64,000 nucleotides of DNA from Escherichia coli (GTDB taxonomy: Bacteria; Pseudomonadota; Gammaproteobacteria; Enterobacterales; Enterobacteriaceae), in NCBI RefSeq assembly GCF_044324785.1, contig NZ_CP172127.1. The stretch is one strand, 5' to 3'. This document shows positions 58,739 through 64,000 of this stretch, piece after piece (the first letter of the stretch is position 1; every line of letters starts with the position of its first letter). The position numbers and the translations under genes are program-made. A model generated the notes under the pieces. That model had not been told where the DNA came from, did not search any database, and saw only the letters and a list, made by a program, of their open reading frames with translations.

Positions 58739-59341
58739 TCAGAGCTGGCCTGCTACGGGATACCAGGGATTACCGGCGAGGTAACGGGCTTCCGGATCGC
58801 GCACACCACGACGATCGCGGGCGAAATCACTGAACGCCCATATCAGCTCTTTGAGTCTCTCTTCGCAGTCCGGTGAACGGGGATCCAGCAGCACATCCCG
58901 GGTAATCTGCTTCTGGTACGGTGCCGCTTCACCCGGTGACGCGAAGCCCAGTACGTTGCTCCAGGCATCCAGAATCAGCCGATCCAGTTCAGGGCCGTCG
59001 AAATATTCCTCCCTGACGCACAGCACCACGTGGTATTCCGGTTTTTCAGGATGACGAGTCAGGAGCCAGCAGAGATCACGTCCGGGGGTTGCATTCATCA
59101 GCGCACTGACGGTTTCGATAAAGGCCATACCGAACCAGGTTTTTCTGTCGCTGAAGATGTTGCCATGTTCCCCCGGCAGACGAAGCAGGATCCGCCGTAT
59201 TCGGGAGCAGGGCTGCTCACGCAGCGCACGCTCAAGGACACCGATAACTTTGCTCTGATAAGATGGCCAGAAGGGCGCCATGCTATAGTCGAAATAAGGG
59301 ATAGCATTCATAAGATATGTTCCGTTATACGCAGCCCACAA
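58739..59341 (-). pseudogene. Inovirus-Gp2-like (YagK/YfjJ-family) gene, 5' end degenerate
   Basis: Contains KPEYHVVLCVREEYFDG (compare HYHVILLLNKDTW in the neighbour); the conserved upstream leader is present at 59471..59535 but the ATG after it is lost. Confidence 0.5.
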
Positions 59342-60399: not shown

Positions 60400-61319
60400 G
60401 ATGAGAGATCTCCGTTGATTTGGATTGACTTCACATCATTAATCACCGCAGTAAAACTTTACGGCGTCCTGTCATTAAGCAACACCAGTGGCTCCTGATT
60501 AGAACAGAATGAGTTTCCCACGAACAAAAAGACAAACCTACACGCAGGGTAAAAACACGCAACAACAGCATGAATGGATTTGAAAACAATATGGATGACG
60601 AAAAATGTCAAAAGTGAAACGGATCAACAGAACGTGCAAACAAAACGTCAGAAACGCAATCAGAGCACTTTCTGGCGCTGTGAATCAACAACAACACCAA
60701 AACCTACAGCTTAACCACATTACTCAATCACGAATGCGAATGACACGTTTAAAACCTGTTTACAGATAACGCCGTAACACGATCATCCCCATCACCATCA
60801 GAATCGATTTTCTCATCCCGAAAATGTTACGTTTCACTACGCACCATAAAAACGATTAACCATCGATAACGTAAATCTCATCTGAATCAAAAAACCAAAA
60901 CCAATCATCACACTTTCGCAATGCAAGAAGAAAAACCACATCATGACGAAAACAATGACCTTACATGAAAAAGCAAAACGTCAGGAATCGTTAATGCCTC
61001 AATCTGATTGTTATCAAAACATCCAGAAAGTCGTTTAACAGAATCGTCGTAAGCACATCGAAAAGAACGTCAGATCACCTCAGGAAAGTTCGGGTTGATT
61101 TAGCGTAAAGATACTTTTCTCAGCTTAACGTCGAAACACAAACCAAAAACCACAAACAACCAAAGCTCAGGAAAGGTTAAACGTCACATCAGTAAAATCG
61201 AATAGCAGATTGATTGCTTAAACAGAAAGGTTTTACAGCAGCTTTAAACTGATTTTAGCTAACGTAAAGATTTACTAAACTGGATGAGTTTCAGACAAAG
61301 CAATGTGTACAGCAATGCT

Positions 61320-61500
61320 TAATGAAAACACTTATAGGGCTGTTTATGAAAACACGTGTATGTCTGGTAAAACACTTAGTAGAAAATACGTGTATAACAC
61401 TTACTGAAATGCTTAGTAAAAATACTTAGTAAAATATGTGTAGAATTATCTATTTAAAAAGATATGTATATAACACTTAATAAAAACATGTGTATATAGT
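61320..61500. repeat. Cluster of short direct repeats and palindromes (iteron-like)
   Basis: AACACTTA(G/C)T at about 61323, 61367, 61403, 61468; CTTAGTAAAA at 61371, 61410, 61423; palindromes ACACGTGT (61349), ATACGTGTAT (61385), ACATGT (61485). Confidence 0.4.
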
Positions 61501-62138
61501 ATCATACCGACATTCTCAACATCTTCAGACTTCCATACATACTGGGTGTTGATTTCTCACTTTTACAGCCAGCATGGAGTTTTCTGTCCTAAAAACAGAG
61601 CAGATTTACTCTGGAATTATTTTTCTGCCCCCGTATTTCAGGCCCCAGAAAAGACAATCCGAAGCAAACCGTTTGTCAGCCTCCATATCATCTTTTACCC
61701 CCGGAAAGTGATCGCGTTTTACAACCAGAATGACAGCCATACTGATTATGTCGTCTCCCGGCCCCCTTCACATATAACATGCATGTCTGTCATTGCTTAC
61801 TGCTCCACATGACCGGATTTCACATACAGGATGCACATTCAGTGTTTTTATCGCCACTATAACAGACAGATTACTGTCGTCTTTACTCTTCAGATTGTTA
61901 ATCTGACCACAAGAACAGCCGAACGGCAAAACGCCCTCCACAAGGGGCACATGAACCATAGTTGATAGCATGTTTTTCCTAATCAAGGAATAGTTCAGGA
62001 ATATTTTATTGCATTAATAACTGGCGAATAATCGTTCTGTGAACACAAAATGCTTTTATTTGTAAATTTTATTGCATTGCACTCGTTTTATTGATATGGG
62101 GTTTAATAACAGATAACCCGGAAAGAAGGAGAAAACAG

Positions 62139-62930
62139 ATGACATTACGGATTAACGATCAGGGGCGAGATAAACAGAATCAATTTTTATCGAAAAATGG
62201 AGAAAATCTGAATTCGTTAAAATCGCGTCATGTGCAGGATAGGCATTTACCTGAATGGCTTAAGGATAAAGTTGCAGCATTCTGGTTTTGTCTGGTGATA
62301 AAGGATATGAAAGTGTCAGGGAGCAGTTACTATGAACTTACCATGCAACTTCCCACTTCTGAAGAATCTGTTTGCATCAGTAAGCTGTCATCCTCAACCC
62401 ATGAGATTCGGCTGGAGATCATCAGGCGATGGATTGATAGTGTAGCACAGATAGAAACGGAAGCTTTTACTAAAAATCTCGTTGATGCCATCTATAAAAA
62501 CTGGAAGGAAATCGGGAACAAAAACCAGGCTACATGGCTTAAAAAAAATCCGGAACAACTCGAGTGGGCATGGAAATATATTAACATTCGTATTCCCGAG
62601 TCACATTTAACCTGGTTTTGCCCCGTCAATAACGAAGAGAAACGCATTGCCATCTTAGCATTGCTTAAAATACTGTATCCCGGAGATATACCATGCCAGT
62701 ACAACGACAAAGAGTTTCATGTCGGGATCTGCGCTGAAGAACATTTTTACAGAAGAATGCACGACGCTTTCAGAAAACAGTTTATCGACGGGAAAAAAGA
62801 TAAACGGGTACAAATTAACGTAAAGATATCACCGTCCGCAAAAAGCGCTCTGGACAGACTGACCAGAGCGAGGAAAACAACACAGCAGGCTATTCTGGAA
62901 CAACTGATTCTGAACGGTAGACTGGATTAA
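62139..62930 (+). CDS. Hypothetical protein, 263 aa, with a possible ribbon-helix-helix-like C-terminus
   Basis: RBS AAGGAGA 7 bp before the ATG at 62139 (track ORF starts at 62091); C-terminal ...VQINVKISPSAKSALDRLTRARKTTQQAILEQLIL. Confidence 0.45.
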   Translation: MTLRINDQGRDKQNQFLSKNGENLNSLKSRHVQDRHLPEWLKDKVAAFWFCLVIKDMKVSGSSYYELTMQLPTSEESVCISKLSSSTHEIRLEIIRRWIDSVAQIETEAFTKNLVDAIYKNWKEIGNKNQATWLKKNPEQLEWAWKYINIRIPESHLTWFCPVNNEEKRIAILALLKILYPGDIPCQYNDKEFHVGICAEEHFYRRMHDAFRKQFIDGKKDKRVQINVKISPSAKSALDRLTRARKTTQQAILEQLILNGRLD

Positions 62931-63928
62931 CTTTCACTACTTCCACTCCTGGCAGTTTTCCTCTTTTTGTAGTGTCTCCCGGCTGCAGGCATCAGGTACT
63001 TTTCCGTCATTTCGTTGCAGAACTCTTCAATGTAGTTAATCAGCTTCTGGTGTGCTTTCACCTTTTCTTCCCCGGGGGACGCTTTCAGATAAATGTCCTC
63101 CTTTTCCACAAGTGTATTTATAAACTCTCCCGGACATCCCTGGTTATAAAGCAACGTGAAAAACAACACATTCCCCAGTCTCTCCAGTAACTGCGATTTA
63201 ACCCTGTATTGTTGTTTGCTGAGGATTGATTGTTTTATAAAGCTTAGTCTTGTTAAAAGTTGTTCAAATCCCGGTTCCAGTTTAAAAACAGATTTTAATA
63301 CCAGGGACTGATACTCCTGATAAAAAAGTTCAAACGTCGGGGATGCAGACTGACGAACAGATTTGGCTACAACCCATGGACTAAATCCCATGATTGGGAT
63401 TTCCTTCGCTCCCTCCAGCGCACTCAGAGGTAGTCCAGCAATCCATGCGTCCAGCTTAGCCGAATCAATATCCCCGCTCAAAACCTCATACAAACTGCCC
63501 GTGAACGGTTGAGTCGGTTTTTTTGTTGTTTTACCTTCTGATTGCCTGAATCCATCCACTTTTCTCCGGATATTACGCGGAATCAGCATAAAAGGCGGGA
63601 CATTAAGTGATAAACGTTTACCCGTCATACGATACCAGTGGCCCACCTCAACCTTAATCCGTGTATCTGGCCTTGTATCTGGCCTTGTATCTGGCCTTAG
63701 CTCAAGTGCTATTATGTTAAGCAGGTACAGATAACGCACCGTATAACAGTCAAAATGTTTCTCCGGATCAAACGGCTCTGATCGTTCTCTGCACACAAGT
63801 CCGCTGCGCTTCAGTATTCGCTGGGTATCTTTCCAGGCCTTACTCTGAAGAATGGTGGTAACTCTGGCTTTATTAGCAATCTCACGCAGCGCATCACTTT
63901 GTTGTGCCGTCATCTCTTCCCTCCACAC
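62927..63928 (-). CDS. Hypothetical protein, 333 aa, with an internal RPDT tandem repeat
   Basis: Long ORF convergent with and overlapping the previous gene by 4 bp; contains a 12-bp x3 DNA tandem repeat encoding RPDTRPDTRPDTR. Confidence 0.5.
   Translation of the reverse strand: MWREEMTAQQSDALREIANKARVTTILQSKAWKDTQRILKRSGLVCRERSEPFDPEKHFDCYTVRYLYLLNIIALELRPDTRPDTRPDTRIKVEVGHWYRMTGKRLSLNVPPFMLIPRNIRRKVDGFRQSEGKTTKKPTQPFTGSLYEVLSGDIDSAKLDAWIAGLPLSALEGAKEIPIMGFSPWVVAKSVRQSASPTFELFYQEYQSLVLKSVFKLEPGFEQLLTRLSFIKQSILSKQQYRVKSQLLERLGNVLFFTLLYNQGCPGEFINTLVEKEDIYLKASPGEEKVKAHQKLINYIEEFCNEMTEKYLMPAAGRHYKKRKTARSGSSES
63663..63698. repeat. 12-bp tandem repeat x3 (GTATCTGGCCTT) inside the 62927..63928 ORF
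   Basis: Three exact head-to-tail copies. Confidence 0.9.
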
Positions 63929-64000
63929 TTTGTCACTCCAGATTTTTTCACGTCCATATTACCTGAATGATAAACCGGATTAGTGTGATCCGGTTCAGCG

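Follow-up and report, generated by a model that had tools for sequence, protein, structure and literature searches.

A hypervariable convergent gene pair as a candidate regulatory module of CP4/SRL-PAI-type islands in Escherichia coli

Close to the right end of the window, the 64,000-nucleotide stretch of Escherichia coli DNA that was analysed (contig NZ_CP172127.1), two genes, here called A and B, converge on overlapping stop codons. Both carry the RefSeq label 'hypothetical protein', and a literature search returned no paper that mentions either RefSeq accession. The following features of the pair and its surroundings are considered:

61987-62006, plus strand: pair of GGAATAKTT boxes with 11-bp spacing that precedes A by ~140-150 bp, a candidate target of its ribbon-helix-helix (RHH) domain
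62139-62930, plus strand: gene A, 263 aa, an ORF with a ribosome-binding site; RefSeq/PGAP CDS WP_000175256.1 is the same ORF
62805-62912, plus strand: RHH-coding segment of A, residues 223-258, with beta-strand RVQINVKIS, helix SPSAKSALDRLTRAR and helix TTQQAILEQLIL
62846-62870, minus strand: palindrome within the RHH-coding region, folding into a GC-rich 8-bp hairpin with CUUUUUG after it, ~60 nt past the B stop
62927-62930: TTAA palindrome that forms the common stop codons of A and B, a 4-bp convergent overlap seen in the sequence
62927-63913, minus strand: gene B, 328 aa, an ORF; PGAP CDS WP_029396404.1
63662-63698, minus strand: tandem repeat that encodes the RPDT x3 of a variable loop in B (Tandem Repeats Finder, TRF: period 12, 3.1 copies, 100% matches)
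63914-64000, running past the window end: divergent intergenic region between B and a GTPase gene, whose ATG would lie at ~64020

Gene A starts with the ATG at 62139, preceded by AAGGAG, and stops with the TAA at 62928-62930; the PGAP call agrees with the first-pass annotation, which had described a 263-residue product with a strong ribosome-binding site, and the convergent, overlapping arrangement described there was likewise borne out. The same annotation had given B 333 residues on the opposite strand; the ORF stands, but that length was counted from a GTG at 63928, and the ATG at 63913, favoured by PGAP and by a GGAGG 6 nt upstream, makes 328 residues the likelier product. An identical 4-bp overlap occurs in strains GF60, CFT073, 492 and CH4793 and at the related locus L005, while the two genes overlap by 11 bp in L011 and are instead separated by a gap of 15-121 bp in L008, L010, L012 and L013. 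That A and B might be paralogues was considered and rejected (hhalign probability 0.2%).

The element that hosts the pair is a CP4/SRL-PAI-type integrative island. A and B lie between a leftward arm with Gp2-like and AlpA genes and a rightward arm with GTPase, DUF932, antirestriction, RadC and CbtA genes, both arms being conserved and outward-facing, and in E. coli GF60, CFT073, strain 492 and CH4793 the pair is found between both operons at four different chromosomal sites. Surveying the genomic context of homologues, a check proposed at the outset, gave the same convergent arrangement in ten of ten relative islands, down to ~25% identity, from E. coli and, at one locus, likely Citrobacter (taxonomy of the distant loci being taken from cluster names). 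The order (GTPase)/WYL, B, A, Gp2-like/AlpA, with B and A convergent and each divergent from its outer neighbour, was kept in all six distant islands, and the convergent partners of the distant B homologues all matched the family-A HMM (6/6, E 5e-42 to 7e-14). As first supposed, the pair belongs to the island and is not a housekeeping locus. Among 5,426 complete E. coli genomes, B was present in 741 and this lineage of A in 560, which places the pair in ~14% of them. A 2-kb query matched 1,825 of the 5,426, in most of them through its last 55 bp, the segment upstream of the GTPase gene. Many islands with that segment probably lack the pair, presumably including the CP4 elements of K-12, and A and B would therefore be dispensable for keeping an island integrated. 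In genome H30 an insertion sequence (IS) lies inside the region, and the L011 island carries a TIR gene. Literature searches on the island gene set turned up descriptive annotations only.

A and B are real genes, because they remain intact in relatives down to ~25% identity and have dN/dS values of 0.3-0.6, denoting purifying selection. The initial caution that the ORFs might be conserved nowhere else fell away, both being intact and full length in the ten relative islands and in hundreds of genomes. In the RHH segment purifying selection is strong (pN 0.03 and pS 0.23 against CFT073, pN/pS 0.13). The view that these are decaying or functionless ORFs, with the RPDT repeat and the overlap as mere accidents, could appeal to the fairly high dN/dS, to mosaic segments, to the insertion in H30 and to the failure to detect the pair in most genomes with the GTPase-upstream segment; set against full-length genes whose motifs persist down to 23-25% identity, the low pN/pS of the RHH segment and synteny conserved in the taxa examined, it is exceedingly improbable.

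The proteins of the B family are mostly helical, with a conserved N-terminal domain marked by the motifs AWxxTQxxLKRSG and IVPxxIRRKVDxFxQ, a linker rich in K, T and P, a C-terminal domain of mosaic character and a tail of basic residues. Full-length homologues number 67 close and ~16 distant ones, and a scan of genome contigs with the B profile confirmed one identical locus only. B had no match in Pfam, NCBIfam, PHROG, PADLOC or PDB sequences, and across 20 diverse members of the family no Pfam or PHROG family came up repeatedly and no PDB sequence matched credibly; B shows no recognisable domain, DNA-binding or other. On these searches B is a new orphan protein family without detectable relatives.

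Family alignments divide A into a fast-evolving, Trp-rich helical N-terminal domain (~residues 1-205) and a C-terminal RHH domain. The C-terminal segment VQINVKISPSAKSALDRLTRARKTTQQAILEQLIL, singled out by the first-pass annotation for its RHH-like pattern, is present and is the sole part of A that gives RHH-family matches. No match of the window proteins passes a curated profile threshold, in keeping with the first impression that neither gene could be placed in a known family, and the profile searches assigned neither to a well-characterised housekeeping family. For RHH_1 (PF01402) A scores 13.7 bits at full length and 18.5 bits as an isolated domain (cutoff 20.5), for RepB-RCR_reg (PF10723) 15.5 bits as an isolated domain (cutoff 21), and for PRK13702 (NCBIfam 'replication regulatory protein RepA') 13.4 bits (cutoff 87); its sub-threshold matches are all to RHH families and all on the last ~35-40 residues. 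The family-A partner in L011 reaches 21.0 bits for RHH_1, above the gathering score of 20.5 (other members, 13-15 bits), and another relative reaches 20.9 bits for RepB-RCR_reg against the cutoff of 21. When 13 members were searched against PHROG, three matched an Arc-like repressor and transcriptional repressor families recurred; a match of A to a 'replication initiation protein' (E 0.015) was set aside, being confined to one of the 13.

The order expected of the fold, namely strand, helix A, turn and helix B over ~40 residues with alternating strand side chains, is found in A as RVQINVKIS, PSAKSALDRLTRAR and KTTQQAILEQLIL; 13 diverse family members preserve it, and hhalign aligns the strand and both helices with those of CopG in the same register. 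Sequence-profile searches of the PDB with family-A queries returned no RHH protein and nothing credible. Structure prediction, suggested at the outset for both proteins, gave AF2 models that are poor overall (pLDDT 52 for A and 45 for B), so that the whole-protein models lend no structural support, although the helices at residues 232-245 and 249-258 of A, preceded by an extended segment, have its best local confidence (pLDDT 75-80). The RHH-like C-terminus thus has support at the family level from Pfam, PHROG and hhalign, with the window protein itself below threshold, and A probably encodes an RHH DNA-binding regulator, the domain being assigned at that level.

As in CopG, Arc, Mnt and MetJ, the predicted domain is a beta-strand-helix-helix unit of ~36-40 residues with an alternating polar/hydrophobic strand, V-Q-I-N-V-K-I. 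Classical members of that group are proteins of 45-100 aa with an N-terminal RHH, whereas A, below the curated threshold, carries its RHH at the C-terminus of 263 aa, behind a ~205-residue Trp-rich helical domain without known relatives. With IncFII CopB/RepA2 and RepB-RCR_reg proteins A shares an RHH in the C-terminal half, second-best family matches (15.5-20.9 bits against 21) and a gene that adjoins Rep-type (Gp2-like HUH) genes; those proteins are, however, ~80-86 aa long and encoded in a plasmid rep operon, while A is three times longer, chromosomal and divergent from distant Rep-like genes. Its sub-threshold scores, length and location in a chromosomal island outside a rep operon place A outside RepB-RCR_reg and CopB/RepA2. 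Nor does A resemble a type II antitoxin of the ParD, CcdA or RelB kind: its partner is convergent, its RHH is C-terminal and B has no toxin-family match.

Comparison between islands separates the pair from its surroundings. Gp2 is 91-97%, the GTPase 89-98% and DUF932 89-97% identical, whereas the N-terminal domain of A is 22-67%, its RHH 32-92% and the C-terminal part of B 43-93% identical. Judged by these identities, A/B is the sole hypervariable element of an otherwise conserved backbone, reminiscent of an immunity region. The N-terminal domain of A is saturated at synonymous sites, which points to a recombination junction inside the gene. Hypervariability of this kind could also stem from an arms race unrelated to regulation. 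The RHH of A is the only DNA-binding domain recognised in the pair and its immediate flanks; as the sole hypervariable element and the site of that domain, A/B is the obvious first target for studies of island regulation.

Rapid diversification might instead mark a two-gene conflict module, engaged in defence, anti-defence, exclusion or helper sensing and locked in an arms race with phages or plasmids. Extreme variability within a conserved backbone, the nearby antirestriction, RadC and CbtA/CbeA genes and the defence cargo of related islands (the TIR gene of L011; PMC12458937; PMC12595487) are what such a module would lead one to expect. Against PADLOC-DB v2, though, neither protein matches a family at E <= 1, and 20 B and 13 A members contain no enzymatic or effector domain, the DNA-binding domain being the sole recognisable one. 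Cargo varies, whereas the pair keeps the same position and orientation in every island examined, and its convergent orientation implies two separate promoters, which would be atypical for defence operons and toxin-antitoxin pairs; a conflict module is thus distinctly unlikely. Of the functions guessed at first, namely island maintenance, regulation or exclusion, regulation alone gained positive evidence, from the RHH domain, the hypervariability and the phased boxes described below; no finding speaks for exclusion or defence, with no PADLOC match and a fixed position in the backbone.

The candidate operator lies upstream of A. Taken alone, the two-box pair of the window is not significant (126 of 200 shuffles reach it), but the homologous position in CFT073 and in strain 492 holds four phased boxes each, which no shuffle reached (0/200). 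In the islands that share the strand RVQINVKIS, GAATAGWT boxes recur on the same strand with 11-12-bp phasing (2, 4 and 4 boxes), and in CH4793, which has a different beta-strand, they are absent. L005, with the same Q-N-K face, carries GAAATAGTT/GAACTAGTT 11 bp apart upstream of A; among loci with other beta-strands, L013 has TACTTTTT x4 (0/200 shuffles) and L011 three 22-bp units, and several distant arrays, in AT-rich DNA, are borderline (9-23/200 shuffles). In this handful of loci the upstream boxes seem to change with the RHH beta-strand. Tandem operator boxes are familiar from the metboxes of MetJ and from the 11-bp half-site spacing of Arc and Mnt, which the phased direct repeats near A resemble. 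The boxes do not overlap the likeliest -35 of A but precede it by ~55-110 bp; a promoter/terminator consensus scan gave no enrichment over shuffles, and no RNA family in Rfam matched the pair or its surroundings credibly. On the other flank, the B-GTPase intergenic region is near-invariant in four islands whose B proteins differ by 12-36%, and contains a 15-bp x2.9 imperfect repeat (63917-63960; TRF) and the inverted repeat AACCGGAT-N7-ATCCGGTT (63973-63980 and 63988-63995).

We tentatively favour, as plausible but short of probable, the reading that A/B is neither cargo nor housekeeping and serves a CP4/SRL-PAI-type island as its central regulatory module, one that varies by allele. A would be a sequence-specific DNA-binding protein, presumably dimeric through its RHH, that recognises the phased direct repeats in its upstream promoter region and would control, putatively by repression, its own promoter, leftward transcription toward the Gp2-like Rep/AlpA arm, or both. 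Its ~205-residue N-terminal domain, apparently swapped between islands like a cassette, may serve oligomerisation or signal sensing. B always accompanies A and is divergent from the GTPase/DUF932/antirestriction/RadC/CbtA arm, with an invariant promoter region of 105 bp between them; it may be the functional partner of A, as a co-regulator, an antirepressor or a regulator of the right arm.

A rival reading is replication control: as an RHH repressor of the CopG/CopB kind, A would limit expression of the divergent Gp2-like HUH Rep gene or genes, the gap between them would contain an origin, and B would bind that origin or assist replication of the excised circle. PF10723 and PRK13702 are the best matches of A other than RHH_1, one NCBI record is titled 'replication regulatory RepB family protein', A is divergent from Gp2-like/REP_ORF2-G2P genes in every island, and the gap, 1.7 kb in E. 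coli, is AT-rich (31-40% GC) with repeat clusters at 61300-61500; these mobile genetic elements (MGEs) also carry HUH rolling-circle initiators (preprint, PMC12458937). Yet the PF10723 matches are sub-threshold and reflect the shared RHH fold only, the single PHROG hit stands isolated, no origin or nick site was found, the 1.7 kb that separates the Gp2 gene from A in E. coli often contains IS elements, and these islands are not known to replicate. Replication control is accordingly an unlikely reading of the pair.

RHH proteins also commonly serve as oriT-binding accessory factors in conjugation systems. By analogy, A could be a relaxosome-type protein, like TraY, NikA or MbeC in role, acting at an oriT beside the 'leading-region-like' arm (antirestriction, DUF932, RadC), with a Gp2-like HUH nickase and B as an auxiliary. 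The right arm does resemble plasmid leading-region gene content and HUH Gp2-like genes are at hand, but neither a relaxase nor a coupling protein nor an oriT-like nick site was found, and the RHH families matched are of the repressor or copy-control types only, which makes a transfer-origin role very improbable.

As a regulatory module, A/B bears a likeness, by functional analogy only, to the lambda imm region and the Stl repressors of SaPIs and PICIs: it is a hypervariable cassette inside near-identical mobile-element backbones, it lies between divergently transcribed element operons, and A joins a conserved DNA-binding module to a fast-diverging second domain. Those repressors are helix-turn-helix proteins with divergent genes, whereas A is an RHH protein and A/B are convergent, and the A/B islands have no known helper phage, inducer or derepression. 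A bolder and rather doubtful extension would make A/B the induction switch of these very common enterobacterial islands, with A a master repressor of new architecture that silences through its RHH and senses a helper-phage or plasmid protein through its hypervariable N-terminal domain, and B a cognate antirepressor or an activator of the transfer-associated arm; if so, the allelic types would define 'hetero-immune' lineages able to coexist in one genome.

The slot that the pair occupies has been recorded before. The SRL PAI has the order YfjJ/Gp2-like, AlpA/Vis, hypothetical ORFs, GTPase, Ag43, YfjQ, YfjX, YeeS and YeeU/YeeV (PMC6980539, Table 2), and its orf42-45, like equivalent 'no similarity' ORFs upstream of the YfjP/YeeP-like GTPase gene in Shigella and UPEC pathogenicity islands, hold the same backbone position as A/B; they are listed as hypothetical, and the equivalence is drawn from position alone. 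The CFT073 island has a diverged A/B pair. Two recent papers class such islands as uncharacterised MGEs, many of whose ORFs are unmatched (PMC12458937, PMC12595487). In E. coli and Shigella, islands with this backbone (P4-type integrase, AlpA, Gp2-like HUH Rep, GTPase, DUF932, antirestriction, RadC and CbtA/CbeA) carry cargo for virulence, resistance and phage defence, and the backbone is shared by many UPEC, APEC and Shigella pathogenicity or defence islands. The pair offers a concrete candidate operator and, in B, a new orphan family. Should the pair prove to be no more than an RHH repressor that regulates itself, plus an accessory protein, the finding would be ordinary for the field, yet the annotation of several hundred genomes would improve.

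Smaller elements within and around the pair were also followed. The hairpin at 62846-62870 (minus-strand fold z = -2.4) is a possible, weak candidate for a terminator of B; as a conserved terminator it was downgraded, because it is conserved only together with the encoded peptide LDRLTR and is absent in CH4793 and L005. A 19-nt motif that occurs both between B and the GTPase gene and upstream of Gp2 is missing from CFT073, strain 492 and CH4793, and was put down to chance. The perfect 12-bp x3 repeat first noticed in B, which encodes RPDTRPDTRPDTR, was confirmed by TRF, and a comparison of strains for length variation, also suggested at first, found three RPDT copies in the window, two in the relatives P0010 and P0066 and one in most others; length varies at the same position in distant homologues. 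To judge from these copy numbers, the repeat is a recent 1-to-3-copy expansion in a variable loop, probably neutral, and, being absent from most relatives, does not define B. A contingency locus was considered and rejected, the unit being in frame and showing no sign of rapid switching. The three-copy form appears fixed in the class of at least 99% identity (50 genomes, varied hosts), as judged from identity, with 514-bp match spans seen in three of those genomes.

The convergent, overlapping pair of genes reported in the first-pass annotation, which lies between the AlpA/Gp2-like and GTPase-to-CbtA arms of the island, was confirmed by the open reading frames, the PGAP calls and a TTAA palindrome common to both stop codons in the window:

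62139-62930, plus strand: gene A, ATG 62139 to TAA 62928-62930; 263 aa; AAGGAG before the ATG; WP_000175256.1
62927-63913, minus strand: gene B, ATG 63913 to its end at 62927; 328 aa; GGAGG 6 nt upstream of the ATG; WP_029396404.1

The frame of B stood, but its proposed start at GTG 63928 (333 aa) did not, since both PGAP and the GGAGG favour ATG 63913. Neither product had been placed in a family and this still holds; RefSeq labels both 'hypothetical protein', and A rose above no curated threshold in family and profile searches. An imperfect direct repeat (63917-63960; 15 bp, 2.9 copies, consensus TTCACTCCACATTTT) spans the ribosome-binding site and start of B and extends into the intergenic region that separates B from the GTPase gene.

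A and B are real genes. Relatives of A, aligned over their full length, reach down to 16-25% identity, while those of B comprise 67 close and about 16 distant full-length proteins, the latter at 23-31% identity; the concern that the two frames might be conserved in no other genome was thus dispelled. Pairwise comparison of four E. coli islands (those of GF60, CFT073, strain 492 and CH4793) gave a dN/dS of 0.3-0.6 for both genes, and it is scarcely credible that they are decaying. By blastn, B was present in 741 and the A lineage of the window in 560 of 5,426 complete E. coli genomes, the CDSs being always unnamed, and 62 complete RefSeq genomes matched the 2-kb A/B region of the window at 99.8-100% identity. 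This 2-kb query matched 1,825 of the 5,426 genomes, mostly through a 55-bp segment upstream of the GTPase gene; this is far more than carry B, and the smaller number with B counts against an essential role for the pair. The K-12 CP4 elements are not known to carry A and B, which may explain why the pair has never been studied.

The four E. coli islands occupy four different chromosomal sites with an identical gene order. To the left of A, three leftward genes (AlpA, a hypothetical gene and one of the inovirus Gp2 family) are followed by an AT-rich gap of 1.5-1.7 kb that sometimes contains an IS; A follows rightward and B leftward with a 4-bp overlap, and after about 105 bp of intergenic DNA come the GTPase-family gene, DUF932, antirestriction, RadC, DUF987 and the YeeU/CbeA-CbtA pair. 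The arrangement was retained at the six loci examined for distant B homologues, whose clusters include proteins of Citrobacter braakii, C. amalonaticus (locus L010), Hafnia alvei and a MAG labelled Acinetobacter: next to B stands a convergent gene encoding 256-320 aa, beyond which lie AlpA/Gp2-like genes, and on the opposite side of B are WYL and usually GTPase genes. All six convergent partners matched the family-A HMM (E 5e-42 to 7e-14). The E. coli islands and locus L005, which is probably from Citrobacter, share the 4-bp stop overlap; it is 11 bp in locus L011, and gaps of 15-121 bp separate the stops in the remaining distant loci. ORFs with 'no similarity' occupy the same slot, upstream of a YfjP/YeeP-like GTPase, in the SRL pathogenicity island (PMC6980539). 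Recent accounts of this class of element, which present it as uncharacterised integrative MGEs encoding AlpA-like excisionases and HUH-type rolling-circle Rep proteins, do not mention the A/B pair (PMC12458937, PMC12595487).

IS elements strike this neighbourhood repeatedly, GF60 (L001 18195-19423) and CFT073 (L002 6737-7952) each having an IS3-family element in the gap that precedes A, and strain AR_0085 (NZ_CP029741.1, match H30) an IS1414 within the 2-kb A/B region. The distant island L011 carries a TIR-domain gene (10313-11287) amid Gp2-like and Zn-ribbon genes, which fits reports of defence cargo on these islands. In the window, a 200-aa ORF (58739-59341, minus strand; RefSeq 'hypothetical') separates AlpA from the Gp2-family gene and could encode a second, diverged Rep-like protein, as distant islands have a second YagK_YfjJ_C/Gp2-like gene at the corresponding position.

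Backbone proteins are nearly identical between islands (Gp2 91-97%, GTPase 89-98%, DUF932 89-97%), whereas identities fall to 22-67% for the N-terminal domain of A, 32-92% for its ribbon-helix-helix (RHH) segment, 43-93% for the C-terminal and 63-84% for the N-terminal part of B. In a segment-wise substitution analysis, the RHH segment had an ordinary pS of 0.23 against CFT073 (GTPase gene, 0.19) and a very low pN of 0.03, while the N-terminal domain of A was saturated at pS 0.6-0.8; this difference points to a recombination junction inside A, with the N-terminal domain exchanged like a cassette, and megablast breakpoints agree with it. Such variability amid a conserved backbone is the signature of a mobile-element immunity or regulatory region. 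That the pair is a conflict or defence module is improbable, and the exclusion function guessed at earlier was unsupported; regulation, guessed at alongside it, gained support from the RHH domain, the variable cassette and phased boxes upstream of A.

Unlike A and B, the intergenic region of 105 bp between B and the GTPase gene hardly varies across islands:

63944-64000, continuing past the window (L001 21943-22020): the 55-bp segment directly upstream of the GTPase gene, 96-100% identical among the matches sampled
Within it, about 27 nt before the GTPase ATG: inverted repeat AACCGGAT-N7-ATCCGGTT

The segment may be a conserved operator, or a structure in the 5'-UTR, of the GTPase operon.

The RHH-like C-terminus noticed in A was borne out, and residues 223-258 very probably form an RHH DNA-binding domain. 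Weak matches, in whichever family member they arose, fell without exception on the last ~40 residues and were all to RHH families (RHH_1, RepB-RCR_reg, RHH_9). The isolated C-terminal domain scored 18.5 bits against RHH_1 (cutoff 20.5), one distant member exceeded that cutoff at 21.0 bits, and another reached 20.9 against RepB-RCR_reg (cutoff 21); PHROG 'Arc-like repressor' and 'transcriptional repressor' families recurred among members. By hhalign, the strand, helix A and helix B were in register with a CopG sequence, and AF2 was confident only at this C-terminal segment (pLDDT 75-80), as an extended stretch followed by two helices. The helical N-terminal domain (~205 residues) has conserved Trp motifs (PxW, AxFWxWL, KWL, WAWxY) and no match in profile and family searches. 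A represents a familiar type of DNA-binding protein in a new architecture, and B an uncharacterised orphan family. With RepB-RCR_reg among the matched families, a replication-control or origin module, which would overlap with regulation, is an unlikely though not negligible reading; an accessory role at oriT is very unlikely.

We tentatively favour the reading, at somewhat under an even chance, that A and B form the central regulatory module of the island. Acting as an RHH regulator, A would bind phased boxes upstream of itself; oligomerisation or signal sensing would fall to its swappable N-terminal domain, and B, on the side of the right arm, would be an obligate partner of A. Variable regulatory cassettes are a familiar kind of module in mobile elements, and none of these results overturns expectations, but the pair offers a concrete, testable starting point for studying how a very common island backbone is regulated. 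Same-strand GAATAGWT boxes occur upstream of A where islands have the beta-strand RVQINVKIS:

61988 and 61999, same strand: two GAATAGWT boxes of the window, 11 bp apart

Four are present in CFT073 and four in strain 492, the latter spaced at exactly 11/11/11 bp; none occurs upstream of A in CH4793, where the strand is RVQISALIS. L005, with the same Q-N-K face, has GAAATAGTT/GAACTAGTT 11 bp apart, and other strands accompany other phased repeats (TACTTTTT four times in L013; three 22-bp units in L011). Against dinucleotide-preserving shuffles (n=200), the four-box arrays of CFT073, strain 492 and L013 were significant (reached by 0/200), other phased arrays were borderline (9-23/200), and the two boxes of the window alone were not significant (126/200). 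The boxes are thus a candidate operator, on suggestive rather than decisive grounds.

The repeat reported in B was recovered, and the length variation between strains that had been proposed as a check was found:

63662-63698, within B (minus strand): RPDT repeat; Tandem Repeats Finder, period 12 bp, 3.1 copies, perfect

The R-x-D-T unit is single in most relatives, double in P0010 and P0066 and triple in the window allele, and in distant homologues the site is a loop of variable length. We infer that the three-copy form is stable within the window allele, as the class of B at ≥99% identity comprises 50 genomes of varied hosts and, in the three examples listed, the match covers all 514 bp. The repeat is incidental and looks like a tolerated slippage expansion, neither a defining nor a switching feature.

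A small Cys-rich ORF (MLSTMVHVPLVEGVLPFGCSCGQINNLKSK...CEIRSCGAVSNDRHACYM; about 67 aa; 61768-61974, minus strand, ATG 61974), which has no RefSeq annotation, diverges from A with the GAATAGWT boxes between them. The DNA block around it is about 90% conserved in CFT073 and strain 492; the reading frame runs open to a common stop in the window, GF60, locus L009 and CFT073, and strain 492 has lost that stop. Further from A, between A and the Gp2-like gene, an AT-rich cluster of imperfect repeats (61300-61500; 31% GC) contains a 13-bp unit, AAAATACTTAGTA, in 5.2 copies (61369-61434) and 24-27-bp repeat pairs with GTGTATAWMAC; its possible roles are those of a regulatory region, an origin or an H-NS target. 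In the non-coding gap beside the Gp2-like gene (60400-61150), the plus strand is A- and C-rich, with an AT skew of +0.24 to +0.34 and a GC skew down to -0.39, a strong strand asymmetry that is unusual for intergenic DNA.
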